NCBI GenBank assembly: GCA_039621445.1
Contig: CP154954.1
Coordinates: 27,082,123 to 27,146,122 of the forward strand
Source: Euglena gracilis
Lineage: Eukaryota
Direction: 5' to 3'
Length of the DNA: 64,000 nucleotides
How positions within the stretch are numbered: position 1 is the first letter of the stretch; the number at the start of each line of letters is the position of its first letter. Below are positions 1 through 63,789 of the stretch, piece by piece. The notes under the pieces are model-generated. The model worked only from the letters and a program-made list of their open reading frames with translations. It ran no database searches and had not been told where the DNA came from. Both the position numbers and the translations under genes were made by a program.

Positions 1-400
1 AGGGTATGTAGTATTTGTAGCTAGTATCATTTCGGAAAACCAAACGTAAAGGCGATAAGGTATAATTCTCAAACAATTTCCCATTACGACATTATTGTAA
101 AAAACATCCTTGGAATAATCCCATTCCCGAAAAAGAGAGGGGATGGGGATTCTTATCGCGTGACGCGGCGGGGGCCCGGCTTTCTACCGCGTTGCCGTTT
201 TCCCCGTATGGGGGTGATCGACATCCGCCGCCAAATACGCGAAACAGGAGAATTGTCAAGTAAGTTGTCAGCGGCGTCTGCGCGCCATGCGAAATTGACG
301 GGTTCGCGACCTCCGTGGAACGTGGCATCACCCTCGCCAGGGTTACCAGGGCAATGCCAGGGTGCACAGGAAAATGTGTCTACGACATTTGGCTAACCTG

Positions 401-7408: not shown

Positions 7409-8644
7409 CGGACCCCCTGCGGGCCAGGAGGGAGGGCGTGGGGGGGGGGACAAACCTCCAGGTGGCGCGGTCCGGGTGACCGATTTTCGCCCCGGCGCGA
7501 AGCGACGGGCCAAAAATTTGACATCCAGCGAAATCAAAGTCGCACTCCCTCGAGGCAAACCGACAAGGGAGAAAGGGACACCGAGGGCGAAGCACAAAGA
7601 CCTTGTGAGGCCATCCCGCTTAGTGCCTTTTTTCGCCGGAGTTGGCTGATTCCTAATTTGCCCTTCGACACCCAGAAGAACGGAACTTCAAATACCACAG
7701 CAATTGAGAAAAGAAGAAGACAATCAATCCAGTCAAATTATCCAGAAAGTCACGCTCGTGCAGAACTTCAAATCAAAAGTTGTTGAAATTTTCGAAAGAA
7801 TTCCATGAAAGATGCAACTTCAAAGACGCACAGCGCAGGAGAACTTCAAGAGGGAGGGGCAGCAGCAGCAGCTGGACAACCTGACGACGCGGGTCAACTG
7901 TGGCGAACCGTGGCTGCCCCTTCCCCAAAAAAAATTTCCCCCACAGAAATTTAAAGAACCCAAACCCCCCAAAGTGATGGCCACGGACCCTGGCAGACAG
8001 TGGTCAGAAGACCCCGAAAGAGGCAGCAACCAGCAAGCCAGTACGGCCATTGGAGCCAGGGCCACTGGGGCCAACACTTGTTCAAGCTGGGCCAGGGCGG
8101 CCACAACAGCAAGCTGGGCCATGGCGGCCACAACAGCAATGGCCATGGCGGCCGACGGAACAAAGGCCAGGGTGCCAACAATACCAAGGCCAGGGTGGCC
8201 GATTCCACAAACAGATGCCCAGTGGCAGGGGCAGGAAAGGTCCACAACACCCCCCCCAATCATTTCTTCATCACAAACCCTATCAGGGGAAAAGGATTGG
8301 CCCCCAGAGGCCCCCCAAGATTTTCAATGGGCATGACGCCCAAGATCAAAGGCAATGGGGACTATCAAAATTTCAAGAGGGCCAGTGGAGCCAACATCAA
8401 GAGGGCCAGTGGGGCCATAATTGCCATCAAGGCCACTGGGGCCATCATCATTCTTATCAACAACAACAACAATTTCAAGGCCACTGGGGCCATCAATTAT
8501 CAGAAGGGATAAAACCCCAGAAGCTAAAAGGCTGTCCCCCAGCAGGGGGTTTCAATGTACGGTGGCAGCCCCAGGAGGATGCCCCCAAAGGGGCAGTGGA
8601 GGACAAGGGGGCAACCCCCCCCGTAACATTCATTATCAACGCCC

Positions 8645-10838
8645 ATGGAAGGGACAAACCAAATCAAGGGGGAGACCCAAAAAGGGGGTCCTATGGTATG
8701 TCAATCGACAACACCAATGACAAAGTGGAGGATCAGAGGGCCTGTGAGCAGAGCATGCACCCCCCCCCCCCAGCCACCTTCAGAGACTGCTCAATTCCCA
8801 GGGGTGCAATGTCGAACACCCCCCACCCAGCACCCAGAATATCATCTAGTTGGGAAAATAAATTCCATGGAGGAAAAATGGGGAGACACCCCCCTGCACC
8901 AGAGACTTCAGAAAAGTCTAAAATGGTGGTCAAAAAATGCCCCTATGGCAACATGTCAATTGATCAAAAACGGAACTCAACCCCCCTGGGTAAATCCCCC
9001 AAAATTGTCCACCCACCCAAAAAACCAGAACCAATCTGGACCCGAACCAGGCAGAAAAAATCCTGTTGGATTACGAATAAACTGGGTCAATAAAACGAGT
9101 TTGGGATTCAGAGACCCAGTATTTGATCCCAAGGTTTCTAATTTCAAAACCACTAGGGGGAACAACAAAATGGACAATGATCAGCGACTGCAGAGAACTA
9201 AATCAGCAGTTTCAAGTAAAACCTTTCAAGTTGGTCATATCCAACACATTTTTCCAGTTTTGGAAAAAGGCCACTGGGCAGCAAAAATAGACCTAAAGGA
9301 TGCCTATTTTCAAATTCCATTAAGTCCAGGCCTAAGGCCATTTTTAAGGCATCAGGTAGGGGGGCAGACCTGGGAATTTCAAACAGGCTGCTTTGGGCTA
9401 AATGTAATGCCCCAAATTTTCATGTCAGTAATGAAAACATTCGACAAATTGTGGAGAAAAAGGGGCATCCAGGTCTTTTTTTACCTGGACGACATTTTGC
9501 TGGTGGCCCCCACCCAAAACATTTTGCAAAGTCACCTGAACAGAGTTGTCAAAGATTATGCTGGATTCTGGGTTCAAAATCAATGTGAAAAAGTCCACCC
9601 TGCAACCCACCCAAGTGGTAACACATCTCGGTTTCCAACTGAACTTCCAAGAGGGAAAAGTACAGGTGCCCCCCTCCAGAAAGTCAAAACCATAAAAAAA
9701 GGAGCTGGGAAAATCGGTAAAAAAGATTACATGTCAAAAAGGCAGCTGGCTGCCATTTTGGGTCAAATAAGATGCAACCTAATGGCCCTGCCCTTTTTAA
9801 GGGCTTTTACGGATGCCCTGGCAAATTTTTTGGTGGCAAAGTCCACAGCCCCCTGGGACTCAAAACACCCCATTTCCCAGGAAATCAAGGCCCAATTAAA
9901 GGAAATAAAAACTCTATTGGACACCTGGGGGGGCAGACCCTTCCCCCAAAATGCAGCCAGGTAGTTGCACTCAGACAGCAGCACCCAGGCCTGGGGGGTG
10001 GGGGGGCTGTACATCCACACAGGAGAAATTGTGCAGCAATTTTGGAGAAAAGACTTCATTTTACACATCAATGTAAAGGAGCTCAGTGCAGCAATAAACA
10101 CTGTGAGAAGTTTGAGCAAACCTGGGGAAACAGTTTCTTTGTCAGTGGACAACCAGGTAATCTACTATTACCTGACCAAAGGGGGGGGGGGCAGAAAGGA
10201 CCCCTTCAACACAATGCTAAGACCATTTTTCAAATGGTGCATGGAGCACCATGTAAACCTCCAAGTCAACTGGGTGCCTTCAAAAGAATGCTTGGCAGAC
10301 CCCATAAGCAGATGGGAAATGGACAGGGGGGATTACTCCTTGGACCCCCAACTTTTTCAATGGCTAAGACAGCAATTCCAAAGTTTCATAACTTTGGAAA
10401 CAGATTTATTTGCCTCCCCAGGCAACAAAAAATTGCCCAACTTCGTGTCCAGATGGCCCCACTGGGAGGCCACAGCAGTAAATGCACTACAATATCCACT
10501 GGACAACATGGGGGATCTTTTTGCAACCCCCCCCCCCCTGGTCTGTCATTCAAAAATTTCTCCCCAGGTTGAAAATGTTTCCCCAGACCAAAGTTTTGAT
10601 GGTCACCCCCTACTGGGATTCAGCCACATGGTGGCCCCAATTAATAAAGATGAAAGTGCCAGGAACCCCGTGCCTGAAAATCACGCCCTACAAGGGCATG
10701 TTCACCAATTGCAGGGGGGAGAAAATGCCAACCCCCAGATGGCCCCTCCTTTGCATGATTTGCTCAGGAAAATATTGGAGGGGAAACAAATACAGAATAA
10801 ATCCATTGAGGATTTCCCGGGAAGAAACCCCAGTTTGA
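8645..10838 (+). pseudogene. DIRS pol: reverse transcriptase, RNase H, Dam-like N6-adenine methyltransferase (frameshifted)
   Basis: Motifs IDLKDAYF, CFGLN, YLDDIL; HSDSS..WG, HINVKEL, VDNQV, LADPISR; DLFASPGN...FATPP. Confidence 0.9.
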
Positions 10839-11690
10839 AAAGGTACCAAAGTGCCTTTTCATTATTATGGGTTATTTTGGACAAAATGGGGAAACCCCCC
10901 CCCTCGAGCCACAACTGACCAAGTGGCTGACGCTTTAGTACAGTTATTTCAGTTTTACAAGGCCCAGGCACGTAATGCCTACAGTGCTATGCTTTTAATT
11001 CCTGGGTTTGGTGGTTTGAGATTCCACACCATGTAGGCCGCTTACAAGAGGCTTTGGAATCAAAATCTAGAAAAATATGGAGCTTTTTGGGATCCCCTCC
11101 CAATCCTCCTGGAGCTGGCCCAAGCCCCCTTTCCCTCTGATATATGCACGTTGGAAACACAGCCGATTTTAGCGTAAAGGCCAGAAATTCCATAAATGGG
11201 AGAGAGTTGTTTCACTTCCAAAGTGCCCACAGATCAGTCCCTTTCATTTAATGATGGCTTATGTGGCCGCTACCCGATTTAACGTAAAGCCTGGGGGCCC
11301 TTCAAAGCCATAAGGGCTGATACAATTGCCTCAATAACCAAAAACTTTTTATCCCAACATGGGGTACCACCCCAGGTGTTGGGGGCACACTCCACCAGAG
11401 GGGCTGGAGTTGGGTTGCTCAAAAAATTGGGCCTTTCTGTCCAAGAAGTTTGTGAAATTGGCCAGTGGAGTGGGGTGGAAGCTTTTACAGCCCACTATCA
11501 ACGACTTGGAGCCAAAGGTCCCTTGGAGAATGCCCTGGCCCCCCTTTTTTCAGTGCACAATCAGGCCTCACAAGGGCAAAGTGCGGAGCCCGAGGTGTCC
11601 CGCACTCCCTCGAGGCAAACCGACAAGGGAGGACGGGGCACCGAGGGCGAAGCACAAAGACCTTGTGAGCCCGACCCCCCCCACCCGTAA
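10730..11690 (+). pseudogene. DIRS tyrosine recombinase (frameshifted, internal deletions)
   Basis: AHSTRGAG (HxxR), IGQWS and AHYQR catalytic-region motifs; homologous to the YR of copy D. Confidence 0.85.
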
Positions 11691-28451: not shown

Positions 28452-29149
28452 GGTGTAGAAATTCTACTGACATTAACGGATTTCAGGCTGAAATTGTTTA
28501 TGTCGATCGATTTCCATTCAGGCGCCCGTTTATGTCGGTCGATTTCCATGAAATCTGTTACTGGTCAGATTGGGAATTTTTAGTGACTTTTGTACATTTT
28601 GGATTTCCCTTTTTTTTCGACATTTTTGGTCCTGTGGGGTTCTGGAGGCGTTACGGACCAGACAAAAAACAAATTTTGCGGCTCATTGCGAGATTGGTGA
28701 TATATTTTTTGGTGGTCACTAGCAACCGGTCCCTAGCGACCATGGTCGCTAGCGACTAGTCGTTGGCGGCTATGGCTACTGACCATTGGTGGTTGGGTTG
28801 GGGGTTCTGGAAGGCATTTGGGTGGGTTTCGAGTCATTTTCCTTCATATTTGGATGAATTTTTTGGAGGGGGTGGGAGGGGGAGGGGGTCAGGTCATCAC
28901 AACTGGCTGAATTTTGGATGGAACGGACGGAAGGACAGAGCTTAAGATTATTTGGGGTGGCAACTGTTAAAACCTGTTTTCTCTGTCAAATGGAAGAAAA
29001 AAACACTCAGAAAAATGAGAAAAAAGGTTGGCCGACATTAACGTATTTCGGGCTGAAATTGACAATGTCCCAAAACGGAACAAAAAAGCATTCAGAAAAA
29101 GGGCCCAAAAGGTTGGTCGATTTCCATGACATCGGAATCCGTTTATGTC

Positions 29150-33568: not shown

Positions 33569-34668
33569 TTTTTGGCACTTTTTATTTTGGGTCCCCTGGA
33601 TGCCGGCTTCACGGCTGAACCGGCTTGGGCGTGAAGCCAGAGCCCCAGACATAGTTTCATATAAAGGGATTTTCCCCTCTGGGAGCCCAAAAGGTCAGCG
33701 GGCTTTATCTTTCTTTCCCCCTGGATGCTCTTTGGGATCACGTCCGGGCCCCCAGGGGTCCCGCGGGACCGCCCTGTCAACCGGACCGGTCGAGTTCGAG
33801 GGGGGGTCCGGGGTCTGGACTGGTCATGTACAGGGGGGGCTCGTGGACTCCCCCTGTCGAGTTCCGAACAACTAGAAAAGGGGGGGCGCCCCAGCTAGAG
33901 CCCTTTTCGACCCCTCCTGGACTCCCTGGACCTCCTCTCCCCCCTGCCTAGTCTCCCTTGGTGATCGTAATGCGGCCAACGGTAAATATGCCTTTCCCTG
34001 GTGACCCATCCACAATCACCCTCCAATGCAACCTGGCTGCGAGATGAGCCTCAGCCCTTGGTTTTGCTGCACGCTTGAACCCAACAAACTCCCTTTAAAC
34101 CGGTTCACCAGTAAAATGGTTTTTGACAAGATGTGACAGGCTTTTTCACAAATGGCCAAAAATATGGTCAGCCATCCTACCCGGGAAGGAGACCTCCACA
34201 TTCATCTGTTTGGGGGCTTCATTCAGCATTTTTTTCAACAAAAAGTGGCAAGGCACATCCATGGAACATGCGTGACCATCTCTGTCATTTTTTTTCCAAT
34301 AACTTGCACATTTATTTCCATCCATCTGCTAAGCAAAAGGAAGGGAGAACAAAGGCGGTAAGGTCACATTTTTTGCATGCTTTCCCTGGGGTCCTTAGAT
34401 CCCAGACGATCACTGGTCTGGATGTCCATCAATCGCGAGACACCATTCCAGGCGATGAACAACAGGAAGAATCCAACCAATAGCCCAATCAAAGCATTTC
34501 CGGTCACAAAAGAATCTCCATATGACGCAGCACTCTGAAGATGAGGAATGAGGATTGTGTTTCAGGAGATCACATCTTCGACCTGAACGTGGATGTGTTG
34601 GTTCGTCATATCCAAATTTTCTTAATCAGATCCGCTTTTCGTACAGCGTTTGTAATTAGGAGTGGCCG

Positions 34669-37353
34669 CTGGGACAATTCTTTCTTCCGCCAGGTTGACA
34701 CCTCTGCGAAAACAGAACAAACAAACAGCAATGGAAGAGGATGCTTTTGGAAACCTTGTGGAGCACACGGTGTGTGATGAAGACACTCGCCCAATCGCAG
34801 CAGGTGAAACCCTCCGCCGATTGGTTGGCAAATGTCTCATGCGTCATCCCACAGTGGTAAACGCTTTGAAAGAACTGAGTCCTCCACAATGTGGCGTTGG
34901 CGTGCCGAATGCTTGTCCACTGATCGCAATGGGAATCCAACAAATGGTGGACACTCTGCACTCGGACAGAGACAATCGCTGGGGGCTGCTTCAAGTGGAT
35001 TTCAGGAATGCCTTCAACTCTTTGTCACGAGAAAAAATCCAGCAATCCATCCGTAGACGCTGCCCAGAAGTGTGCCCTTGGCTGGATTCGTGCTACGCCC
35101 AACACAGCAAGCTGTATTGTGGGAACCATTGTCTGCCTTCCCAGAGGGGAGCTCAGCAAGGCGACCCATGCGGACCTGCAGCTTTCGCCTGGGGTGTGCA
35201 AGACCTTTGTGAGGGCCTCTCACCCCTGGTCGAATGGCAGGGATGGTATTTGGATGACGCCCATCTGCTGGGATCGCCAGCCCAACTGCACAATGCCCTT
35301 GCCTTTCTGATTCGGGAGGCAGCCACGCTTGGGTTGGCCGTGAACCCTGCAAAATGTCGATTGTGGGGACCAGCGTTCACATCAACAGAAGGTGTCCCTT
35401 GCATTCCCCCTGGCACGCCACAGGACAGCCCCTTACACCAAATACCACTGACCGCCTTTGTTGCTGGTTCTGGTTTGAAAGTTTTGGGGGTCCCTGTCCA
35501 CCACCCCCAAGATGACCGCTTCTGTGAAGAAGTTTGGAAGCGCACAAGCGGGGTCACGCTTCAAGCGCATTGAAGACATCCGACGTTCTTGCACAGTACT
35601 TCAGCACCTACCTCAATCACATGTGCAATTCACCTTGCTTCGTTTTTGTTTATCCGCTTGCAAAGTGAATGACCTCTTGCGCGCCTGCAAAATAGCCTCT
35701 GCAACAGCGGCATGCAAGACATTGTCGGGAATTATTCGGGAAACATTCAGTAGCATGGTCGGCTCCCCTTGCACCCCAGAAGAATGGTTGCAAGTTTCCC
35801 TGGCCATCAGATGCGGTGGACTGGGAATCTCCGATCCACTATTTCAACGGAGGCTAGGCACAGTGGGGGGGGGGGGGGGGTTGGGGGGGGGGGGGCGAGC
35901 GGCCGCGCGGGCGGCCGCGTGGGGGGGAGGAGGGGGGAGGGTGGTCCGCGGGCGGCCGCGCGGGCTGAACGCATCCGAAAATCGGTGATTTTCGGGTCCA
36001 AAAAGTGGTCATTTTTTGCCATTTTTGGGCCATTTTTGACCAAAAAAGTGCTTTTTTGGCCGCGCGCAAAGCGCGCGGCCCCCAAATTTGCCATTTTGTG
36101 TCCGAAAATGGTCATTTTTGGTCATTTTTGGGCCTCAAAAAATCGCGATTTTTCACCAAAATTTTTTTTCTTGGCTATGCTAGGCACAGTGGGGGGAGGG
36201 GGGGGGGTCCAGGGGGGGGCGAGCGGCCGCGCGGGGGGCCGCGCAGGGGCCGCGCGGGGGGGGGGGGAGGGGGGGGCCCCGGACCCCCCCGAGCGGCGCG
36301 CCTAGCCTCCAACGTGTGCCTGCCAGATTGTCTCAAGTGGTGGACTTCTGTCGAAGAGCTCCCTCTGTCTTGGGCCTGCCCGCTGCCATGGACATCATTC
36401 CCAAAGACGCTGACGATTGCTTGCGGACAGCCCTCAATGAACTTGGTCAAATGGCCCCACTGCCACAATGGGCCAGTGACAAAAACTTGATCTCTCAGGC
36501 ACAGTCTCCACACAATTCACAACGTTGGTGGAATCAGCAGAGCATGCTTGCCCGCCAGAAAACACTTCGGGACACATTGAATGGACCTGATGCTGTACGC
36601 TTTGCAAGCCAATGCCAACCACACGCTATGGCATGGGCCGCTTTGACACCATCTCAAGGACTCCGCACCCTGTTACCCACGGCTGAATTCCGGTGCACAC
36701 TTCGTTGGTCCCTCGGAATGACTCTCACACCAATAGAATCCGATCCCAACCTCTGTCCCAAATGCTTTGGACAATCAGATTTTCTTGGACACCACCTCGT
36801 TTGCTGCAAATCAAACTTCATTACCCGGCGGCACGGGGCTGTCCAAGATTTTTTGACAACCACAACACAGAAGGCAGGATTTACAGCCCGTAAAGAACAA
36901 CGAGCTGATGACCGTTCACGGCCTGGGGATATCTTCATTCCTCCCTTGGACAGTGATGGACCCGTTGCAGTGGATGTGACAATCCGCCACACCCTTGCGC
37001 AAAGTCATCCGCTGCGAAGTGCAGAGAGCCTTTCACAATGGCAAACACGACAGGAGGCTGAAAAGCATGCCAAATATTGTGCAACATGCCAACGCTTGGG
37101 CTGGCGGATGATGCCATTCGTCATGGACTGCTACGGGGGCATGGGACAAGAGGCGCGCTCCTTGATGGCCACCCTCCTCAAGGCCCTTCTGGGGCAGCGG
37201 GAAGGGTGGCAACGGCGTGCCGCAGAAGCAGACATTTGGCAAGGCCCGTCCTTCACACTTACGAGAGAAATCAGCAGGCAGCTCGTTTGGAGCTTGTATT
37301 CTTCCAAAGATGAGATCACCCTGTCTTCCGCCCACTCACCATATTCTGTCTGA
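34669..37353 (+). mobile_element. CRE-clade non-LTR retrotransposon (RT, CCHC knuckle, restriction-like endonuclease), 5'-truncated, two insertions
   Basis: RPIAAGETLRRLVGK, VDFRNAFNS, GAQQGDP, WYLDD, GGLGI; CPKC...HHLVC; RRHGAV; RPGD...AVDVT; KHAKY. Confidence 0.93.
35850..36309. mobile_element. GC-rich MITE with 5-bp TSD inside the CRE ORF
   Basis: GAGGCTAGGCAC / GCGCCTAGCCTC; TSD CAACG; removal restores DPLFQR-VPARLS. Confidence 0.9.
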
Positions 37354-38254
37354 AGGCCTTTGAGCCCAAACTCTCAACCGAATAACCAACCTGGAACTCT
37401 CACCTGCTATGTTTAACCCCTAGTTACCCCCTGAGCAGGGCCACACGGCGAGCCAAAGACAAATCAATGGGTCACATAGACGCGCAGAGAAACAAAACAC
37501 AACAAAAGCCATAACCCGACACAAACACGCCATCCTGTGGCAAAAGAGGTACAAACGCCCCCCTCCCCGCCCAATATATATTGAAGGTGACCTTTGCTCA
37601 TCTTCCGCTAACCACTGACCTCCGCACCCTGAACAATATATGTCATCACTCTTTTGTACATTACACCCACAGTATAAGCTACCCGCGACCTGTGGCGGCA
37701 CAGGGAGTCACAAGGGGGTTCCTCTTGTGGCGAGGGCCAAAAGAGACGTTTCCCTGGGCCCGGGGCACGGTTTGGGTGAAGCAGTGCTACCCACCGTGGA
37801 CCAAAAAGTGCAGGCTGGGACATAACAGGACATTAAAAAAAGACATAACGGCTGGCCAACCGAATCGGCCAAACCTCTCAGAACGGCCAAAAATGTCGGT
37901 CTCCGAGCGGAATGCGCAGCTCCAAATCCTGCTGTTCGCATTCCAAGCTCAGTGGGACTACCGAACTATAGGGCGGGCATTGGGGATGTCTGACCGGACA
38001 ATTCGAAGAAATGTACAAATATTTCTTGCAGAAGGCCGAACAACACTTTTGTAACGACCTCCCCCACCCCGCCCCGAAGGTCGAAGCAGTGGAGCGAAAC
38101 CCCTTTGTATGGCATGTAATGTAGATTTGGAAAAAATTGACTTTCTTTCAGGTGACGTTATTCGAGTTGCAAGGAATGCTACGTAACCGACTGCAATTGT
38201 TTTTGTCATTGAGGACAATTTCGAGGTACCCGGAGAACCAACTAATAACCCGTA

Positions 38255-39281: not shown

Positions 39282-40031
39282 GACAAGGGTTTGACAAAGC
39301 CGTTCTCAATTTGGGGGGATTGTGCAGGGTTGACGTTTTTTTTGTTTTTTTTTAAAAAAAACACAACAAAAAAACATGTTTTTTTTAAAAAAAACACAAA
39401 AAAAACATGTTTTTTTTGAAAAAGCAAAAATTGACCTTTTTCCTTGCGAAATGACCAGTTTTTTGAAGAAAATTTTTCGCGGGTAGTTCGGGTCACGAGG
39501 GGGGGGTCACGGGGGGTCACAGGGGGGGGGGTCACGAGGGGGGGTCACATTTTCGGTGGCCAGATTAGAAATCACCGAAAACGAATTTTTGGGGGAAAAT
39601 CCTTTTTAGGCTCCAAAATAGGAATCCCCCAAACGAAAATTAGGAAATCTACCGGAATATTTTGGCATCACCGGCCAAGTTTTTCAGAAAAAATGGCCGA
39701 AACGGGTCTTAGGTCGGGTTGGGGGAGGGGGGTCAAGGGGGGAACACCCCCTGTGAAGTTTTTTTTTTCAAATGTGTGAAAGTATTTCCAAATCTGTGTT
39801 TTCTGGTGCGAAAAATCATGCTTTCAACCCAAAAAAAATGAATGTTGTAGAGATAAAAAATGCACTTTTTCCCAAAAAAAACATTGCAAAAATTTTTTCC
39901 CCCAAACCCTCCATGAAGTTTTTTTGTTTTTTTTTAAAAAAAACCTATTTTTTAAAAAAAAACATGTTTTTTTTGTTTCAAAAAAGACAAGCCGTCAACC
40001 TTGGGCATGTGGCACGTCAAACCCTTTTCAA
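39282..40031 (+). other. Candidate euglenid nonconventional intron
   Basis: Non-GT-AG ends; +4..+14 AAGGGTTTGAC pairs perfectly with -16..-6 GTCAAACCCTT; excision restores PYSP-Q-LNATE. Confidence 0.75.
39325..40003. mobile_element. hAT-like MITE nested in that intron
   Basis: CAGGGTTGACG / CGTCAACCTTG; 8-bp TSD GGATTGTG / GGCATGTG; related ends at 41073 and about 51272. Confidence 0.8.
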
Positions 40032-42660
40032 AATTGAACGCCACTGAAGAAATGTTTTCTTTTGTGAAGCATGAGGTTCCGCAACGCCCCGATACCCTCT
40101 TTGTTTTTTTGGTTTCTAATTGTACTTTTTTTGTATGCCCTTCTTTTGTGAAAAATTTGGGGGGCCTTCACGGGTTGGTCAAGATTTGGGGGGGGGGGCT
40201 GCAAGGGTGGTGAGAATTGGGGGGGGGGAATTTCCCTTAAATTCCGTTTTTTTTTGTTTTGGGATTTACAATTTTTCTTCAATTTGATTTACTTTGGTTC
40301 AACTTTCTTTTTTTGTTTTTCCCCCTTCAACACCACACGAGGGCGTCAGAGAGAAGCTGTACTTGCATTCCCCTCAGCTCGCTGCCACTGACCACTTACC
40401 CTGGTGCCAAAAGGCCTACTCCCGCATGTTAATTCTCAAAAACATCCTGTTGGGGTGTTTGCAGCGCGTGACCGTCGCTCACGCCCGAGCGTGGCACAGC
40501 CACGCCATCACAGCCCACGCACAAAGCTTGCGGGGTCAAGACTTCTGAGTGTGAGCCCTGAATTGCTTTCGTCAACCCCCTCACTTCCATAGGGGACAGG
40601 GCACAGGGGGGGGAGGGGGGGGGGTCCGAGGGGGGTGGTTGGAAGCTGTACAGGGGGGGGGGGGGGGGGGGGGGCCCCAGAAAATCGCAACTGTACTGCC
40701 TACCCCCGAGACAGTTGCGACATTTTTCGTCCAATTGAGGTTGTCTTCGTTGTACATACCATTCCCCCCCCCCATAGTTAGTCACCCCCTTGGGAGGGGA
40801 ATTTGGCCAAGGTGACTAATAGGGGGGGGTGTAAGAACTGGCTAACTCAGGGGGGGGGGCAATTTATGCCCAATTTTTGCCCCCTACCCCAATTCTTGGG
40901 TGTTTCAAGGTTATCTTTTTGGGCATTCCGGGGCAATTTTCATGAATGACAACCATCAAAAAATTCCGATGGCCAAATTTGGTGGTTTTTTCAAAGAAAA
41001 ATATTTCCCTCCAAAAAATTGTTTTTGCCTGGGGTCCAAGGGTTACTAATAGGGGGGGTCACTAACTAGGGGCAGGGTTGACGTTTTTTTGTTTTGTTGT
41101 TTTTATAAAAAAAAGCATGTTCTTTTAAAAAAAAACCCAAAAATGTTTGTTTGTTTTTAAAAAAAGCAAAAGTTGACTTTTTTCCTTGCGGAATGACCAT
41201 TTTTTTTCAGGAAAAAGTTTTGAAGTAATCTTTTTGGTCATCAAAGTGACGTTTTTTAGTTTTTCCAAGGACATGATGGTTCATGTCCTTTCTGGACTAC
41301 GAAGCTGCAGAGATAAAAAAACTGGCCTTTTTCCTTTTTAAAAAAAATGTGCAAAAAAATGGTGCATTTCCACATCCAAAACAGAATTTTTTGGGCATTC
41401 CTTCAAAAATGGCCCAAAATGCATCCCAAAAAATGTGATGGTCAAGAAAATCCTGACAAAATTTCCTTTCAAAAAATGAAAACATGACCAATTTCGGACA
41501 AAAAATTTTTCATCTGTCTCGGGGGGGTTGGAAGTGGGGGGGGAGGGGGGGGGGCCCAGGAGGGGGGGGGTTGGAACTGTACAGGGGGGGGGGAGGGGGG
41601 GGTCCCAAGGTTTGACCAACTGTACTGCCTTGTCCCCATAGCATCAGAAAAACATACTTTTATACAAAAAAAGACACCTCAAACGGCAACCACTTTCGGG
41701 TGCTTGGCTCTGGCCAAATGAAACGAAGCCGTCGGGGGGGGGGGGCGACCCTTCTCCCTCTTTGTCACGAACCAAACTCTAGAGTGGGGCGGAGAGGCAG
41801 AAAGAGGCCCCCCGAGAAAATTTTTTTCTTCGGTTTTGTGCTCTTTGGGGGAAATGGGCAAAAAACATTCCTTTCACGTGGCAATTTTTTTTTGGTTTTG
41901 GGGTGGACTCCACCAGAGATGGGACAGTTTCCTCAGGGGGGTGGCCTGGCCCCCCTGCACAAAACCAACGTGTCTGAGGTCAACAAAAGCAACAAAAGCC
42001 GGTGCAAAAAATCTTCCTCAAATTTCTTCCAAAAAATCTTCCTCAAACGCCTTTGCCGTTTTCCCTCCCACAAAAACGGCAAGTAATCCCTTGCCTTGGC
42101 AAACATAAACAACCGAAAATTTTTTTGCATTCAATGCAGCTTGAAGGAAAACTTTCTGAAAAGGCATTTTCTTCATTAGATTGTTTTCATAAAATAAAAA
42201 CTGTGTGCACAACGAACAAACAGAGAAAGAAATCACGCAATGGTGAGGGACTTATTAAAAGACTTATTTGGAACGCTCCTTGAAACGGCCAGATGAGCAT
42301 TAGCATCACCACAGGAAGAAACAGTTTCAGACACGTAGACAGATGAACTACTTGTGGCACTACGTGAGCATACTGAAGAACAACAGCAAAAGAGGAAAAG
42401 AGAAATTGTTCAAACCTGCAAAGTTCGTTCACAAGTTGATGTTGCGATCTTAAAAAACAGTTCGGCGTGTTCAGTGAGACAACCTAAACGAAGAGAACTT
42501 GAAATTTTTTTGATTCAAAGTGAAAATGGGCATCATTTGAGATCGGCCAAACCTTGGCGACCTGGCGGCCAAACTCGAAATCCAACGGCCACTCCTAATT
42601 ACAAACGCTGTAGTAAATCTGACCGCTCTTTTGAGTGTCTATTATATATTTTTTTTCATG

Positions 42661-42686
42661 TCTTTCTGAGTGTCTATTTTTTTCCG
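42661..42686 (+). other. Genomic copy of the euglenid spliced-leader exon (with a degenerate upstream copy from 42627)
   Basis: TCTTTCTGAGTGTCTATTTTTTTCCG versus the Euglena SL ACTTTCTGAGTGTCTATTTTTTTTCG as recalled (24/26). It is followed by CATAAAACC-ATG, not by a GT donor. Confidence 0.85.
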
Positions 42687-43439
42687 CATAAAACCATGGC
42701 TGCAAAGGGCCCAGGTGGGCCCCAAGACTATGGCCCTGACGAAGACCCCAAGTCTCAAGTCAATATACCCATTGTCAGTCAAGCTGCTACTACAACCAAC
42801 CCTGCAAGTACACCTATTGCTGCTGTGGGTACTGGACAGTTGGAGCTGTTGGCCAAGACCTTGCTGCCGCTGTTGGTGCCCGTGCTAACCACTGCTGTGG
42901 CACAACGACTCACTGCTGACCGCCCTGAACATAGCGACAGAGAAAGTCAAGACAACAAGAGAAGGAAGAGGACATGGCAAGAGAGGGAAGAACATGAAGA
43001 GTTCCTACAGAGAAGGTTTGGAAGATTACAAGCCCCCATGGCAGAGAGGTCGACCCAGTTATCATATATCTCAACAGAGTTCTCCTCAACCCCAGCTCCG
43101 TCAGCAAGTGAGCCTGGGGCCCCCCTGTACAGCAAGCCCATCAGTGGGCATTCCTCGGACTCCGGTGAAGAATGATCCAGGAGGTAGGGACAGCGAAGGC
43201 GGAGCACAAGACAACAGTGAGGTCCTGCTCTTCTTTCCGGCTGTTGTTTGTGTTTTTGGTGTTGGTTGTGGTGTTTCTTACTGCAATGAGATGTCGGAGT
43301 AGGCGGACTCGGAGACGGTGTCGAACTTCTCGGTGGCTCGCGGCGGCGGGTTGCTGGCCTGTCTGTGGGTGAACTGAAATTTCTTGGGGGGGGGGCCCTC
43401 ACTGACTTTTTTGTTACTTTCCGGGTCGGGGGGGCGGGC

Positions 43440-44640
43440 TCACTGTTGTCTTGTGCTCCGCCTTCGCTGTCCCTTCCTCCTGGATCATTCTTCACCGGAG
43501 TCCGAGACAGCTCCGGCTCCGCACAAGACCCCAGTGAGGCTTTGTGCACCATTTTTTGGACAGCAACCCCCGCCTTTTTACCCGCTTCCAACCGCAAATA
43601 ATGGGAAGAAAAGGCCTGCACATTTTTCCATTTTCCAATCTGACACACCTCCTCAGAGGACAAACCTGCCAGTTTATACATGTATACTCCTGCCCCCCTG
43701 GTGGAGTGGGGGGCCCACTGGGGGGGTACCCCATGTTTCTCCAACAATCGTTTTGTCAAACTCCCAATGGTTTTGGCAGACAGAGGGGTAAAAGGGGGTT
43801 TCAGACTTACCACCCCCCCCCTTATTGTCCCACCGACCTCTCCCCGGGAGGCCCGACCGGACAATAAGGGGGGGGGGACAATAAGGGGGTACCAAAGGAA
43901 TTTCATTGGCTGGGCCAAAAAATCCCCTGTCGGCCGGGGCCCAGGGACAATAAGGGGGGGGGACAATAAGGGGGGGGGGGTAACAACAGAGGTCCCCCTG
44001 AAGGGGCACAGTGTGATGTCAAACTGACATATTTTTTCATGTTGAACCAGGGGCAAATATTGGGACATGAAGGAATCTGGGGAATTTCTTCCCACTGAGT
44101 CTGTCTCCAACCCTTTCTTTGGACCAGAACAAAAACCTTGCCATCAACCTGGGACACTGTCCTGAAGGTTCTACTCAAGTCCACTGAACGATGCAAACAG
44201 ACGAGTCTGAAACTTAAAATGACCTGGTCTCTCAGATCACTGAGGCACTCTGGGGGAGGTGCTGCTGCCAATTTCTGGAGTAATGACTCAGGATTCCAAA
44301 ATGAAGAATACCTGGGGGTGGATGTGTTCCATTTTCTTTTGTAGGGGGCCAACAGGGGTAAAAACCTTAACATGTGAAACCCAGGAAGCTGTACCACAGC
44401 ACTATAAGCACTATAAGCATTCCTGGCTTGAGCCACACTGAAGGTGAAAATTTTAATGATGCCAGAAGCGACTAATTCTGGGCTCATGGTGCCGAGATCC
44501 ATCTGGGACAAAGCCAAAACTCCCCACACGAGTCTGAAGGCAGAATCATATCTTGCCAAGGACAGATTTTGACTTAAGAAATTGTCAACCACTGAGGGGG
44601 GGATGTGTTGCTTCTGCCTGACAATAAAATGCACGCTAGG
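43440..44640 (-). pseudogene. Tyrosine recombinase of DIRS copy D
   Basis: LHRSVDL (R), QRKG (K), HSTRGAG (HxxR), GKWK (W), SHYLR (Y); interrupted by the TA MITE at 43810-43980. Confidence 0.9.
43810..43980. mobile_element. Tc1/mariner-type MITE (TA TSD) in the YR gene
   Basis: CCCCCTTATTGTCC / GGACAATAAGGGGG; removal restores GPLLLSLKPP; related sequence at about 51970-52115. Confidence 0.85.
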
Positions 44641-45074
44641 TGCCATAGCTGGCACTTCGTTTAAAACGAAGTCAAAAAAAAAACACGTTTTTTTTAAAAA
44701 AAACATGTTTTTTTTTAAAAAAAAAACGCCATTGAGGGTCCAGGGCAAAAAAAATTTTGCCTTTGATTTTAGCTTTTTTTGCCCATCCTCGGTCAGAGAA
44801 AGACACCAAATTTGGGATGTTTCAAGTTAGTTTGGAATGGTTTCAAGCCAAAATGGCAGAAAAATGCCCTATTTTGACCATTCTTGTTGAAGACAACCAA
44901 AAGTATTGGTTTTGAGCTAAGATTGGTTCACCCTTGCGATCAAAGGCAAAATTTGGACCATCATTTTCCCCTTTGTTTTTTTTGCCATTTTTTTTGCCCG
45001 TTTTTTTTTAATAAAAAACAAAAAACGTTTTTTTTAAAAAAAAACAAAAAAAAACGCCAGCTATGCTACCGTAG

Positions 45075-46815
45075 GTGCCATCTTGGCTTTTTCATGGGCT
45101 GCCCGTGACAATTCTCGAACATGTGGTGGCAGGGCTGGTGTGTGTGGAATGTGAAGTTTTATTAACAGGGGCCACCACACAGCTGAAACCCACAGGGGGC
45201 AAATCAGAAGGCATTTTAGGTGTCTGTGTTCCTTTAATCTCAGGAGCCACTGGCTCAAGACAGACCAGGGGGGGTTTGCATAAACCTCTGAGAACATGTC
45301 CAGAGGGCAGTTCAAACTGTCTGTGGCTACTGCCTGAAAATGGGGCCATCGACTCACAAACTGAGAAAGTTTGTGATTCCCTGGTGATGCAAACATGTCC
45401 ACAGTTGGGTTGATGAATTGCTGGAAAATGTGCATGACTTTTTTGAAAATGAAAGGGTTTAAACTGTAATCCCCTGGGTCGAAGTGCCATCTGCTGATGG
45501 CATCGCTTTTCATGCTTTGGGAGGGGCCCAGTGAACTTGGAGGGTGATGTCCATTTCCATACACCACTTGAGAAAGGGTCTGATGAGTTTGTTCAGGTGG
45601 GGTAGCCTGCCCCCCCCCCCCTTGAGAAGATAGTAGTAGGAAACTTTGTTGTCCACTGTTAGGGACACTGTGTCCTTTTTCTTGGCCAAAGACCTTACAG
45701 TTGAGAGTTGAGATGGCTGCGATCAATTCTTTTACATTGATATGTAAATGAGAGTCTTTTCGCCAAAATTCCTGTAATTGGGTGCCAGCTTGTAGGTCCA
45801 GGCCTCCCCAACCAAAGGTTGAGCTGTCTGACTCCAGGTGTCTGGTGGCTGGGCTTGGGAAGGGTCTCCCCCCCCCCAGGTCTACAGAATTTCCCTGACA
45901 TCTTGCAGTTGAGATTTGACCTCCTCTGGGATTGGAACCTGATGATCCCAGCCAAATTTTTCTTGTAGGTTGACAAAACCTACCAAAGTGTCTGTGAATG
46001 CCCTGAGGAAGGGCAGCCCCACCAAGAAGCTTCTTATGCATCCCAAAATTGAGGCCATTTTCCTGCAACTGAGGGACTGGTGTGTGACTAATTTCCCCAG
46101 TTCCCTCCGAACCATTTTCAGTTTTTCTGTCCCCAATTGTAATTTTCCCTGTGCCAGATTGAGGTGGAATCCCAAATGGGGGAGATTTTGGGTGGGTTGA
46201 AGGATTGATTTCTTGCTGTTGATTTTGAAACCCCCCTGCAGTAAATCTGCTAGCATGATGGCCAGGTGGTTGCTGACTTGCTTCTGACTGTCTCCTATCA
46301 GGAGGATGTCGTCCAGGTACACAAAACATAAAAGGCCTTTGGCTCTCCGACGTTTTTCCAGGCATTTCATTAGACTCATGAATTTTTCTGGCAGCACATT
46401 TAAACCAAAACAAGCTGCCTGGAATTCCCAGCATGTGTCTTCCAGAGTCATCCTCATGTAGGGTCTTAGGGCTGGGTTCAACATTAAATGAAAGTAGGCG
46501 TCCTTTAAGTCTACTTTTGCACCCCATTGTCCTTTTTTCAGGTGCCTGAAGATGACCTGGATGTTGTCCAGTTTGAATGGGTGTGTGGAAAAATGCTGGT
46601 TCAGTTGGCGACAGTCGCTGATTAAACGATGTTTTTCCCCTTGAGGCTCTTTTTTGGAGATTACAAACCAAGGGACGGTGTGTTGGGTACCTTCCCAGGG
46701 GACTGGTTTTATGGCTCCTGCCTGAAAATAGTCCTGTAAAATGCTTTTTGCCCTTTGTATTTCCACCTTTGACTTTGGTATGGAATATGTGCTGAGGGAG
46801 GGGGGTGACTCCCAA
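45075..46815 (-). pseudogene. RT, RNase H and methyltransferase of DIRS copy D
   Basis: HRLISDCRQLN, VDLKDAYF, YLDDIL, ESDSSTFGWGG, HINVKEL, SDAISR, VDMFASPGN, YANPPW. Confidence 0.92.
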
Positions 46816-48579
46816 GGGGGGTTACCCCCTGTGTGATGAGTTGCAACACCCTGGGGGGGGGCAACCTTTTGCCACCATGGCAGCTGGTCCTGAAGCCTCT
46901 GAAACAGAGGCACTCCCAGAAAGTGCTCCTCTGTCAGCAGCAGCACCTCGGTGATCTGTTCCACAGATCTCAAGCATGCAGCTTCCCACAGCCTGCAGAT
47001 GTCTTGGCTTCTGCCCTTCAGGGCTGGTTGACTTTGTGGCACAATGCCCAGCTCTGGAGGACACAATGTCCTTTTGGGACTTGATGAGTTCTGATCTGAA
47101 AAGGAAGGAGCAATACTTCCTGGCAAGATGTTGGGCAAACCATTTTCCTCCTTTGGACTTGCCTTTCCCTTTGGGGCCAGACCGCCATGGTCTCGGTTGC
47201 CAATTTGTTGGCCATTGCTTGAACTTCCACCCTTTTCCACCCGTGGGGGTGGGGAAATGCCACATGGGGAACTCACCCTTGAAGGGGGATTTGATACCCT
47301 CTTTGTTGATGCCAGCTTGGGCTTTGGCCATTTTGATGTCTTCAGGGGTGAACAGGCCATTTCCTGGTTGTATGGTCTGAGGGATGCTTCTCCTCTTCCT
47401 CTCCTTGACAATGTCACCTTCACGGCAGCCACGTATGCGAATCGTTGTTGGCTCAAACCCAATACGTCTTCAGGGGCTCCTTGTAAGGTGCAGTGCAGCG
47501 CTGCCAAGATACGCAGTATGTTCAAGAAATTCTGCTGGACAGCACGCAGGGTGCGGTCATACCCACTCTTACCGTCTTGACGGTGGTTGTTTTCCTCCGC
47601 TTTGGGCTTCAGGGTCTTCCAGGTGGGTATCTGTTCCAGCAAACTTCGTACGTCCAATCGTTAGTCCCCAGACTGTACCTGTGTCCATAGCCTCTCCAGG
47701 TCCCCTGGCAGTGCCTCCTCGGCCGTCTGCCAGGGGAAGTCCTGGGCTTCCTCCGCCGCGCGCGCTCCCTCCTCGTCGCGATCCATCTCCGCCGTCGTCG
47801 TCGTCGCCGTCGTCCACTTCTCGTACAGCTTGAAGGCCACGTCCGACGCCTTGTCGCTTAGCTCCAGTGACGGTATCGAGACGTTCTTCGTGAGTGCCAA
47901 GCTGTAGAGGTAAGCCGCCAGATATGGTTGTAGGGTAGACTCCACCATAGCCACTCCGGTGAGCTTCCGTACAGCAAGGGCACATCGGGTTGTATCCCAC
48001 CCTGCTCCAGTCCACTTCTGACTGGACACAATCGTGGCCATCACGGCGGTAGCGTCGGCATCTCGCAAGAAGGCTGTTGTCATTGATTCTTGTAAGAAAA
48101 TGTTGCTCCACGCCGCTTCAAAGGCCTCTTTGTCGGTCTCGTCTTGCAGGGTAATTTGCATGATCAGCTTGAATACTTTGGTTGCAGCTCCGTGCCAAAA
48201 GGACGTTATGATCCGCCTACTCCGGCAAAGAAAAGCAGTAAGAAACACCACAACCAACACCAAAAACACAAACAACAGCCGGAAAGAAGAGCAGGACCTC
48301 ACTGGGGTCTTGTGCGGAGCCGGAGCTGTCACAAACAGGCCCACCAGTGGGCATCCCAGTGAACAGTCCATTCCAAGGCCCACCAGTGGGCAGAAGCCAA
48401 GTATGCCCATCTGCCACATCAATCTTACAAATGTACATTCCATCACAGACCAACCTTTCGGGTGAACCCCAGCAATCCCAGCAACCTCTACAATCAAACT
48501 AACTGGAGCAGAGAAGAAGAACAGAGGAAGAATTGGAACAGAGAAGAAGAGCAACTCTTCAGAAGCCTCTACTACAAAA

Positions 48580-48708
48580 AAGGGGTGGCGGACGCCGGTT
48601 CTGTCCAAAGCCCGGCGTTCCGGACGCCGGTTCCGTCCTTCCGTCCGAAGGACGGAACCGGCGTCCGGAACGCCCGGCTTTGGACAGAACCGGCGTCCGC
48701 CACCCCTT
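48580..48708. repeat. Near-perfect palindrome of about 130 bp (foldback MITE)
   Basis: AAGGGGTGGCGGACGCCGGTTCTGTCCAAAGCC... mirrored about CCGTCC; GACGCCGGTTC motif shared with 25330-26200 and 61911-62732. Confidence 0.9.
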
Positions 48709-50649
48709 GTTATAGGAGCCGCCCCGGCGGCGCGAATGTCAGTAGGATTTGGGGGAGGGGCCCCGAATCCACAGACGAGCAGTTAACGCTATTGGGAAAA
48801 CTTTGAATAAAATTTTTTTCATGTATCTCAAATCGATCAGTTTCCGGACGGGAATACCCCGCTGCCGCCCGGAGGCTCAAATCGGCTCCGTACGGAAGGT
48901 CGCCCGCTGTCAGATATGCGATGCGCATTCCTACACTGCACACGCTAATATGTGAATTTGGTTCTAACTCGCTTTGTAGCGGGAGATAGGGCTCACATTC
49001 GAAAGACGGGCGGCCGCGAGAGACGGCGATGTATACCAAGGCATTTTTGAATCGTACAATCAATTGTGCAGTCAGTCATAAGGTGGGAAGTGGGATGGAT
49101 GTTGTCACCCCCACAATTGGTCAACTTTGTATGGATGTTTGAAATGTTTGCCCCTGTTTCATTTTGTGCCCTTTCTGATGTTTCAGAGGATGAGCCACCA
49201 TTCATTTTTTTTTTGGTTTGCTTAAATCAAAATTGCTCATTTTAGGACTTTCTTCAGGGGGTGATGTCTTCAATGGAGGTTGTCATTTTGATGCATCAAC
49301 CCCTCCCAAAACGGCACCTCCAGGCTCTGGCTAGGGTGTCTAACTGCAATGGGGGGGGAATATGGAGGGGTTCGTGAAATATTGGAAAACATTTGGGTGC
49401 TTTTCGACCTTTTATGCATTTTTGGAGAGTTCCATCCGCCAAACTTGAAAAAAGACTCCGAATCGGGCCATTTTGGAGGTTTTTGCAGCCCGGTCAAAAG
49501 GAAGCTTTTTTTTGGGACGCATGTCCATGGTTGGATTGAGGAATTCAGGATTACGGTTCAGGTTGACATTGAGGTTGAGGTTGAGGTTGAGGTTTTGCAG
49601 CCTCAATCCTTCCTATGTCACCTTTATGTCAAAATGCAAAGGAAAAGGACTCCTTGACAAAAAATTGTACAGGCAAATTAACTGGAATTTTTCAAATGTT
49701 GCGCAATTGTCATTTATCTCTGCGTTTAAAATCGCCAACCCGGCGACATTGAGGTTGAGGTTGTTTTGCCTCAACCTCAATCTAGCCTTGCCATGTCCAT
49801 TGGCCGGACGCAAATTGCAAGCACCCTCAGCCCCCCCCAAAGTGTTCCACCCCCAAGTGGCAACCGTTGGTTCACCCCCTCAAAGTGGCCACTTTCTTTC
49901 GGCGCCTTTGGCAAAATTTGCCCCCTCCCAAAGTTTCCCCTCCCCAAAGCGGTTTTCAAAGCCGTTTCGGGTCCCATGGTGCCTGGAGGGTGGCCATTAT
50001 GGGGGGGGATGAGGGTGGATGTCATCAGGGGGGTTTTGTACAATTAATGTAAATCAATTCTGCAGATCCCATGCCATTATGATTTGTAATTGAAGGATTT
50101 TTTTCATCAAGGAGTTTCATTTTGGAAGGCCCTTCGAATGGACAGGTGTGCTTGAATTGGCGTCTGTGGCAACTCACGCTTACACAAGGTTGCATAGTTG
50201 GCGTTTATTTTATAAAGAAGAAAACAAAACAACGTGTCGGTCCGTCCTTTTTTAAGACAGCCCACTTTCAGTTTGTCTCCTCCAGTTTGTCCAGTTTGAA
50301 AGGGAGTCAAAAAGTATCTCCTAGTAAGTAAGTAACTCAATTGTTGATGAAAATTCGACCCCCAAAAATGATCCCAACCCCCCCCCCCCCAAATTGGCGA
50401 TTCTCGGCAAATTTGGTCAAAATTGGCATTTTTCATGATGGTTGGTGGGTGTCAAAAAATTGCAAAAAAAATCAGTTTTTGGGTGGATTGTGGCCGAAAA
50501 ATTGTCCCTGGCGGATTTCATTTCTTCCCCAAGGGGGGGGGTTTAATTTTCCCCAACAACAACAAGTTACAGTAACAAATTACAGGTCCCGGTTTGATTG
50601 GTCGGCCCGAGGGGGGGTGTTATAAGTGGGGGGGTTTACTTTTGGAAGG

Positions 50650-61910: not shown

Positions 61911-62732
61911 AGCGGCGTTTTAGAGACGTCGGGTTCAGGACAGAACCGGCGTCCCCACCCTTTGGTCAAAGGACACTCCCAGGGACCAATCTCGACCACT
62001 TATCTGCAATGCCACGCCACTTTGCATTTCACCAAATTCCGGCGATCACGAGGGTATTTCTGGCTGTGTCAATCGTCCAAGTACAAACTCACCCCTCAAT
62101 CGAAAGCTCTTTTCATCAGACGACTGGCGATCACCACCAAATTCAGCCACGCTGCCTGGATCTCTTATTTTCTGTCACTGGGAAATCCTAATTTCACAAC
62201 TCTGGTGCCCCTTGGACCCCTCAGGTGTTCGATTCGAAGAGAAAAAACGTTTCTGTAAGGTTTATTCAGCATCTCAAACCAAAAATAACTGAAAATTACC
62301 ACAAATTTCGACTAAGATTCTGGCCGATCCGACGATCGCGAGCGTATCTCGGGCTGCGTGCAATGTTAGGGTACCAAGTTACCCCTCGATCGAAAGCTCT
62401 TTTCAACAGACGACCAGAGGTGCTCATCAGATCTTTCCACGCTGCACGGTACTCTATATCCAAATCTGAGCCAATTTTCACCAAATTTGGATATCCACCC
62501 CAGTGGTCCCTAGATGGAAAAATTCATTGTCCTAGATGGTTGAAACAGTCATACCAGCACCTTAGGGCCACTTTTGGGCACTTTTGGTGACATTTTTAGG
62601 AATGTAAACCGGACGCCGGGCTTTGGACAAAACCGGCGTTCCTAACGCCGGGCTTTAGGACAGAACCGGCGTCCGGAAAACCCGTGGGGGGGACGCCGGT
62701 TCTGTCCTGAACCCGGCGTCTCAAACGCCGGT
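61911..62732. mobile_element. TIR element flanked by TTAA (Kolobok- or piggyBac-type target)
   Basis: TTAA|AGCGGCGTTT...GGGTTCAGGACAGAACCGGCGTCCCC is inverted at the right end|TTAA. Confidence 0.75.
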
Positions 62733-63789
62733 TTAAAGCTTTTCTCAGCACAGGCCAGAGTGCAGAAGCCCCCCCCCCCTTCCAACACCATTTTTACAAC
62801 CCTGGCCTGCCAGCACCCTTAATCCCAGATGTGGCACTGGCATCACCATCATTCCTCCACTGTGCTTTTATGCTTGCATTCTCTTTTGACTCACAAAATC
62901 CCCCCCAAAGAGGGGAAAATTCAGCAAAAAACCCCCACCCACTAACACATGAGGATCATGAATCCCAGCCAGAGACAGCTACAAATGAAAAGAAGCCAGA
63001 TGCAGCCCAACAAAGGTCAACACCACTCCCCAACATCCCCCTGGAAGAGGGGGGGGCAGGCCACATTTCGAATTTTTAAAACTCCAACAAGCCCACCATG
63101 TTTGATGGCACACAGTGGGCAAAACTGGGCACAGTGATCCTGCAGGAAGAACCTTCCCCCTGTCATTGGGAAGACGCCCCACAGACAACATACTTCCCAG
63201 CCTCCTCAACCAACACCCCCCTGGAAGGGGTCCCAGTTAGGGGTAAGGTAACGGACCTGAAAATTCACACAAATTCACCCTTTTTGCGTAAGATTTCAGA
63301 GGCCATTTTCCAGCAAGTTTCAGTAAGGATTCAGAGTTTTTTGTCTGGGTGGGTTCCGGCTCACTTCTGAGCCTGGCGCCCTCACGGTGGTTAATATTCT
63401 ACACCCCAGAATCGTGATGACCCTTATCCCGGTATTAATGCTAAAGGCTAATGGGTTTGCGGCCTACAATTTTTTCAAAAACCGCCTCACGAAGGGGGTG
63501 GAGCTTATTCAAAACCCCAAAATGCCCAACACCCAAAACGCAGGGGGTGTCGTCCCCGTGACCCCCCCTGTGACCCCCCCCCGTGACCCCCCCGTGACCC
63601 GGATTTGAACACCCCCCGATTTTGGGGTCCGCAAACGCACGTGCTTCAATCACAACTGCTTTCAGTATTTTTTTTTCAAATGTCGCGGAAGCCGGAAACA
63701 CTGAAGAGGAGGCCACTCCCCCCCCGTGCCCCCCCCCCCCCGTGACCCCCCCCGTGACCCCCCCGTGACCCGGCCCACCCCCGCAGAAC

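Follow-up and report, generated by a model that had tools for sequence, protein, structure and literature searches.

A tandem spliced-leader sequence joined to an open reading frame in Euglena gracilis DNA: a candidate retrocopy interrupted by a DIRS1-like element

The locus

In a 64-kb stretch of the genome of Euglena gracilis (contig CP154954.1, positions 27,082,123 to 27,146,122 of the forward strand; this whole stretch is called the window here, and positions are counted within it), two copies of the spliced leader (SL) of trans-spliced euglenid mRNAs stand in tandem, separated by two nucleotides and followed within a few more by the ATG of an open reading frame (ORF). This ORF is split by a DIRS1-like retrotransposon, and unrelated repeats lie on both sides of the whole. 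An intron-less SL in DNA directly 5' of an ORF, which is what is found here, is the central criterion of an SL-tagged retrocopy. The features and their positions are collected in Table 1.

Table 1. Features of the spliced-leader unit, the inserted element and the flanks (positions in the window)
Feature	Position	Strand	Remarks
Upstream flank	42570..42612	+	End of an unrelated short repeat (…CGGCCACTCCTAATTACAAACGCTGTA); BLAST
SL copy 1	42627..42658	+	Complete but altered; 23/26 SL positions kept
TG spacer between SL copies	42659..42660	+	Seen in the sequence
SL copy 2	42661..42686	+	24/26 identical to the published E. gracilis SL; without a following GT donor
9-nt leader CATAAAACC	42687..42695	+	Separates SL copy 2 from the ATG at 42696
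ORF, 5' part	42696..43154	+	153 codons; ends at the DIRS insertion point
DIRS1-like tyrosine-recombinase retrotransposon	43155..48330	-	5,176 nt; interrupts the ORF at 43154/43155
DIRS right inverted terminal repeat (ITR)	43189-43307		With the end segment that reaches 43155
DIRS internal complementary region (ICR)	43439-43539		
DIRS tyrosine recombinase (YR) frames	~43560-44706	-	
DIRS RNase H / Dam-like methyltransferase frame	45061-46527	-	
DIRS reverse transcriptase (RT) frame	45882-47360	-	RVT_1, E 5.1e-15
DIRS ORF1	~47661-48161	-	
DIRS left ITR	48212-48330		
ORF, 3' part	48331..48465	+	44 codons and the stop TGA (48463-48465)
Inferred 3' untranslated region (UTR)	48466..48581	+	110 nt, then A6 (48576-48581)
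GC-rich palindromic repeat	48582..48706	.	Borders on the inferred 3' end; belongs to the flank, outside the unit

The spliced-leader doublet

The published SL of E. gracilis, as given in the available text of PMC6242988 and contained within a primer in that of PMC5654406, is ACTTTCTGAGTGTCTATTTTTTTTCG. From position 42627, the window reads TCTTTTGAGTGTCTATT ATATA TTTTTTTTC A TG TCTTTCTGAGTGTCTATTTTTTTCCG CATAAAACC ATGG. An initial annotation, made from the letters of this DNA, had pointed to a 24/26 match to the euglenid SL that ends 9 nt before the ATG at 42696, and comparison with the published sequence has confirmed this. The copy in question, copy 2, reads TCTTTCTGAGTGTCTATTTTTTTCCG and departs from the published SL twice, with T in place of A at position 1 and C in place of T at position 24; the SL ending at the locus is TTTTTTTCCG. 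The annotation had also placed a second copy, a 17-mer, at 42627 and described it as degenerate. A copy does start there, but it reaches beyond these 17 nt and is complete, ending at 42658. Its changes are the deletion of C6, one insertion of 7 nt and two substitutions, T at position 1 and A for G26. The inserted nucleotides, which contain ATATA, follow CTATT and lie inside the T-run, and the tail of the copy consists of a full T8 run (42649-42656), C at 42657 and A at 42658, where the SL has G. Together with the TG spacer, this A forms the ATG of an upstream ORF of three codons, whose stop is a TGA within copy 2.

The SL identity of the doublet is far beyond chance. The 21-mer at 42663-42683 occurs a single time in the window even when up to 3 mismatches are allowed (0.00 expected from 100 shuffles), and the 12-mer core TGAGTGTCTATT is found only at 42632 and 42667, with 0.10 occurrences expected and two or more in 0 of 100 shuffles. 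The doublet was not called as a repeat by TRF. A GT donor is missing behind both copies: copy 2 runs on as CG|CATAAA and copy 1 as C-A-TG-TCT. At the gathering score, Rfam gave no match in the whole 64-kb window, and thus neither a 5S gene nor any other RNA gene, and between 42300 and 43200 it gave none at E<=1.

A few weaker resemblances to the SL have been observed elsewhere in the window. Two SL-like strings on the minus strand, TTTCTGAATGCTTTTTTGTTCCG (29098-29076) and TTTCTGAGTGTTTTTTTCTTCC (29013-28992), lie in two copies of a tandem unit of about 80 nt; the string at 29013-28992 scores 16 and that at 29098-29076 scores 15, and with maxima of 12-15 in Markov-simulated sequence these values are borderline. 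In addition, 48807-48829, on the same strand as the doublet, matches the junction of copy 1 and copy 2 at 19 of 23 positions (…TTTTTTTCATGT.T.TC). This match lies about 1 kb downstream in coordinates that leave out the DIRS insertion, and under a Markov model 0.007 such matches are expected per window. The region around it, 48759-48917, was considered as a third, decayed copy, with an alignment score of 49 that was reached by 0 of 288 random pieces. It was dropped because an exhaustive scan of 1,267 windows gave unrelated places scoring 46-48.

The inserted element and the reconstructed reading frame

The ATG at 42696 is the first after SL copy 2, and the frame that it opens ends, as the sequence stands, at 43175. 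The initial annotation had not seen that this frame is interrupted at 43154/43155. The intervening sequence is a near-textbook DIRS1-like element: it combines an RT with a tyrosine recombinase in place of an integrase, and it has ITRs together with an ICR equal to its joined ends. The two ITRs agree over 119 nt at 87% (by BLAST, over 104 nt at 91%). Read in reverse complement, the ICR agrees with the join of 48297-48330 to 43155-43221 at 100 of 101 nt, including an exact run of 64 nt over the join. This join is the DIRS circle junction; it sets the length of the element at 5,176 nt and assigns one of the C's at its two borders (43154 or 48330) to the target. Furthermore, the near identity of ICR and circle junction indicates a very recent insertion by way of a 1-nt (C) crossover.

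Some domains of the element are recognized less clearly than its RT. The Dam-like match is weak (17.5 bits, below the cut-off), as is that of the YR frame to Phage_integrase (14.4 bits, E 0.032, likewise below the cut-off); by eye, the YR frame shows HSTRGAG…HY. A paralogue of the YR, 51% identical over 128 aa, is found at 11283-11687, adjoining another RT copy. The RT itself has a partial match of 97% identity in the protein library that was searched and a 53% match to an E. gracilis transcript in EukProt. DIRS elements with Dam-like domains have already been reported in E. gracilis, as far as the available portion of that report goes (bioRxiv 10.64898/2026.05.21.726589), and the inserted element is like them in its RT, Dam-like and YR frames, its ITRs, its ICR and its lack of a target-site duplication (TSD). 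The SL unit is different from DIRS1-like elements; here the DIRS element is the interrupter and carries no SL.

When the element is excised by script at the ends defined by the ICR, so that 43154 is joined to 48331, a single ORF of 197 codons results (42696-43154 plus 48331-48465). The window has 1,821 ATGs, and just 2.7% of them open an ORF of this length or more. A 15-nt motif, GCCCAYCAGTGGGCA, gives better evidence for the join than continuity of frame does. It occurs three times in the window, at 43136-43150, 48339 and 48378, as against 0.03 expected, and all three copies are within 50 nt of the element's ends, one 3 nt before one end and the others 8 and 47 nt after the other. Only in the reconstruction predicted by the ICR do the three share one frame, in which they encode KPISGH, RPTSGH and RPTSGQ. 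This agreement means that both flanks of the DIRS element once formed one continuous, internally repetitive coding sequence, and the motif and the ICR together establish that the locus is real genomic DNA rather than a cDNA contaminant.

Downstream of the reconstructed stop, the inferred 3' UTR ends in A6, the sole A-run of 5 or more between 48331 and 49400. The unit as a whole, about 0.85 kb long, thus has the layout SL-SL, 9-nt leader, ORF, 3' UTR and A-run, with unrelated repeats on both sides. Upstream, the repeat is 40-70 nt long and ends at 42612; it recurs on the minus strand at 34712-34642, where 31 nt match at 97% and a longer stretch of 66 nt at 77%. This similarity ends 14 nt before copy 1, and the SLs therefore stand at a sequence boundary. 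The palindromic repeat on the downstream side has 65-nt arms of 97% complementarity and belongs, as the copy at 48577-48711, to a family of GC-rich hairpins or palindromes, …GGACAGAACCGGCGTCC…, with relatives at 61926-61964 and 62609-62733.

Origin of the unit

These observations lead to an explanation that we consider reasonably probable: what stands here is the 5' end of a retrocopy, written back into the genome from a mature, SL-trans-spliced mRNA and later hit by the DIRS element. In this model, a euglenid RT would have copied an SL-capped mRNA, and the resulting cDNA would then have been integrated. The retrocopy would have been intact, or nearly so, when the young DIRS element recombined into its coding region by a 1-nt crossover, an event that would have ended its life as a gene. 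The window does contain RTs, with at least four RT-bearing stretches, three of them DIRS-like and one LINE-like (LINE, long interspersed nuclear element). The initial annotation had already proposed mRNA recycling. What has stood of that proposal is the look of a processed mRNA 5' end in RT-rich DNA; the accessory marks, namely a TSD, a clear poly(A) tract, a parent gene and the expected order of decay, have proved either absent or doubtful.

The closest parallel is provided by the DinoSL retrogenes of dinoflagellates and Perkinsus, as they are presented in the accessible part of PMC6050394. There, too, an SL lies in DNA directly 5' of an ORF without the intron of the SL RNA, more than one SL may occur in tandem, and the arrangement is attributed to a retrotransposon RT acting on trans-spliced mRNA, as is proposed here. 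The same text has the younger, 5' relicts as the less mutated ones, whereas at the present locus the 5' copy is the more altered. The Euglena unit differs further in that its SL is of the euglenid type, its two full-length copies stand 2 nt apart, and no parent gene has been found. In dinoflagellates, SL relicts are usually shortened back to an internal AG. PMC6050394, a review, refers in turn to Slamovits and Keeling, 2008. A second parallel is found in the LINE-mediated retrocopies of animals, which, in the portions available of PMC5470649 and PMC3747384, likewise consist of an intron-less 5' UTR, ORF, 3' UTR and A-run within RT-rich DNA. The present unit is unlike these in having no TSD, in having only A6 and in preserving its full 5' end. 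It should be noted that a TSD is expected only for LINE-type integration. Copies made by LINEs are usually truncated at the 5' end.

A number of results weigh against a retrocopy. Both a TSD and a poly(A) remnant had been named as things to look for. There is no TSD: the longest word common to the flanks is 6 nt, an unremarkable length that was equalled or exceeded in all but 22 of 500 shuffles. The trace of poly(A) comes to merely A6 at the inferred 3' end, where it abuts and partly pairs within the palindromic repeat. The GC content of the ORF by codon position is flat (0.54/0.535/0.525) and lends no support to coding, a second reading frame over the same stretch holds just 3 stops, and 2 of the 3 junction phases are open past the excised DIRS element, so that continuity of frame is by itself weak evidence. 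Furthermore, the 119 codons of this frame that lie upstream of the ATG (42339-42695), straight through both SLs, contain no stop, an unexplained feature that the initial annotation had missed; the in-frame peptide of 42339-42626 had no homologue among 83 candidates from longer proteins.

Nor has the parent gene, which had likewise been suggested as a check, come to light. A word-indexed search of proteins of near length yielded no homologue of the ORF among 305 candidates, and an exhaustive HMMER search yielded none, and no parent, in 1,835,955,588 representative proteins. The library included E. gracilis transcriptome proteins, and an expressed E. gracilis parent should therefore have matched. 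The ORF hit 0 Pfam families, and the best score in the ESM Atlas, 0.85, gave no lead. Within the window, tblastn and blastp found no paralogue of the ORF better than E 0.6 and no second copy of the unit. Finally, all this concerns one locus, dead and orphan, and the order of decay of its two SLs, taken up below, is the reverse of that in dinoflagellates.

Among the alternatives, the one with the most in its favor, though we think it improbable, is that the unit represents or descends from an element, mobile or repeated, with a trans-spliced RNA, each new copy thereby carrying the SL in cis; the ORF would then encode a protein of the element and not of the host. An orphan ORF would be in keeping with this idea. 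So would the neighbourhood, which is entirely a mosaic of transposable elements, and the junction match at 48807-48829, so rarely expected in a window of this size. The single-sequence AlphaFold model of the ORF product, with two long helices flanked by disorder (pLDDT 68, pTM 0.26), is as compatible with an accessory protein of a transposable element as with anything else. However, the 64 kb hold the ORF and the unit only once, at the DNA as at the protein level, and the unit has neither an RT nor an integrase nor terminal repeats of its own. Moreover, the wider similarity around the junction match is rivalled by unrelated places, as described above. The suggestion in the initial annotation of a mobile gene that encodes its own leader has consequently gained nothing from the window, in which no second unit copy was found.

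Two other explanations are very improbable. The tandem arrangement of two SL exons might suggest an SL RNA gene or one of its pseudogenes or orphons. SL RNA genes are tandemly repeated, and those of Euglena are said to alternate with 5S rRNA genes; they have reportedly been described by Tessier in 1991 and Keller in 1992. The unit shares with them the same 26-nt exon, but it has no donor, no intron and no 5S partner, and it has an ORF instead. Neither exon leads into a GT, nor is there a donor followed by an intron with an Sm site (the Euglena intron sequence itself was not compared). In addition, the spacing of the two exons, 34 nt, leaves too little room for an SL RNA, Rfam gives no family, 5S included, there is no 5S array in the 64 kb, and an ATG with a long ORF follows the SL. 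Thus, the view of the initial annotation that this is not an SL RNA gene is upheld by the missing GT after either copy and the missing Rfam match, on which grounds the SL RNA gene was rejected. The remaining idea, that of a chance resemblance in T-rich, low-complexity DNA or of an assembly artefact from cDNA reads, could appeal to the weak SL-like strings of 28992-29098, but chance was rejected on the statistics of the exact 21-mer and of the 12-mer core, which recurs within 35 nt. As for an artefact, an ORF interrupted by a DIRS element with intact ends verified by its ICR is unlike any cDNA read.

If the unit is indeed a retrocopy, its having two SLs calls for an account of its own, and three have been considered. 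The first, for which there is a slight preference that falls short of conviction, is that, as in dinoflagellates, an initial retrocopy was transcribed, trans-spliced 2-3 nt upstream of its old SL and retroposed again. For this, a trans-splice acceptor would have to be present at that distance from the old SL, and the 5' copy is predicted to be the cleaner of the two. A second account, which we regard as rather unlikely, has the RT jumping from the 5' end of the mRNA to a second RNA that ends in the SL, such as the free SL exon released in the first step of trans-splicing. It is purely conjectural, and it would predict exactly two full SLs with 2-3 untemplated nucleotides between them. The third, a local duplication at the DNA level of 35-38 nt comprising SL, leader and ATG, is a tentative but serious possibility. 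It would explain both the T that the copies share at position 1 and the ATG in which copy 1 ends, at the cost of a further loss of about 10 nt from copy 1 and of a breakpoint that falls exactly where the SL starts. Thus, the two rounds of recycling envisaged by the initial annotation are not established, as a template jump or a 35-38-nt duplication is equally compatible with what is seen.

The differences between the copies do little to settle the matter. Both have T at position 1, where the SL has A. This shared T fits an RT stopping one base short of the capped end and fits equally well the descent of one copy from the other. If position 1 is left out, 3 changes fall on the 5' copy and 1 on the 3' copy, which reverses the dinoflagellate order. 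It had been noted earlier that the upstream copy is the more decayed; this is correct as a count, but with 4 events the imbalance is not significant (estimated P about 0.3), and it is statistically not telling.

Spliced leaders in other DNA

A scan of prokaryote genome contigs (596 Gb) with the 21-mer gave two loci. One, in Crocosphaera, matches at just the 21 nt; about 0.3 such matches are estimated for 596 Gb, and the locus, being consistent with chance, was set aside. The other is on JALQXU010000217.1, a contig of 988 bp that has been binned into a metagenome-assembled genome of the actinobacterium Pontimonas. It matches the SL at 26 of 26 positions (791-816), and the number of chance 26-mers expected in 596 Gb is about 3e-4 by estimate. 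The SL is internal to the contig, with unrelated sequence before it and ATCTTCTCAGG… (ATCTTC…) after it, which is not GT. An ATG follows 67 nt downstream of the SL, and its frame is open to the end of the contig. The contig has nothing in common with the window but the SL, and it gave no match in Rfam. It is probably mis-binned euglenid DNA and, as such, a second, independent case of an intron-less SL in DNA. Because a scaffold gap lies 36 nt upstream of the SL, it has been counted as supportive only.

Significance

Relicts of an SL in DNA are the single unambiguous tag of gene copies derived from mRNA, and they have been described for dinoflagellates and Perkinsus, according to the part of PMC6050394 that was available. 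A literature search, which was not exhaustive, found no report of euglenid SL relicts or SL-tagged retrocopies in the accessible portions of its sources, including PMC6053224, PMC3935182 and PMC6050394, and the terms 'spliced leader' and 'retrotranspos' do not occur in the text of the 2019 paper on the E. gracilis draft genome. It is conceivable, though we would not yet call it likely, that euglenids return SL-capped mRNAs to their DNA in the way that dinoflagellates do, sometimes repeatedly or with jumps of the RT onto free SL exons, in which case the present locus and the Pontimonas contig would be the first footprints of the process. If this were true, genome-encoded SLs would already be in place as a tag by which retroposition events could be counted in the Euglena genome, which is very large and laden with repeats. 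Should the pattern hold genome-wide, it would allow a direct measure of the share of the roughly 2-Gb genome and of its gene families that derives from RNA, would reveal which RT copies mRNAs, and would test whether an encoded SL aids the expression of a retrocopy, as has been proposed for DinoSL. One dead orphan locus can carry modest weight in such an argument; the finding itself is real and cleanly delimited.

Other repeats in the window

In addition to the element that interrupts the ORF, diverged DIRS-like fragments with RT or YR sequence are found at 5630-6394 (minus strand), 8627-9964 (plus), 11283-11687 (plus) and 343-1152 (minus), with 66-69% nucleotide identity to the copy at 45-46.6 kb. 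The LINE-like RT lies at 34656-37353 on the plus strand (RVT_1, E 7.8e-12) and appears to be truncated at its 5' end. The short repeat found just upstream of the SL doublet is also present at the 5' edge of this RT, on the opposite strand. A short ORF at 37515-38054 (plus strand), which has a weak, homeodomain-like match to HTH_23 (E 3.4e-4, below the cut-off), resembles the N-terminus of a transposase, and the GGCCAAA-rich sequence upstream of it resembles 42541-42580. Lastly, a family of palindromic, AT-rich T(n)A(n) repeats is represented at 39330-39430, 39886-39974, 41096-41165, 44660-44760 and 44982-45054; two of these copies lie inside the inserted DIRS element, between its YR and methyltransferase frames.

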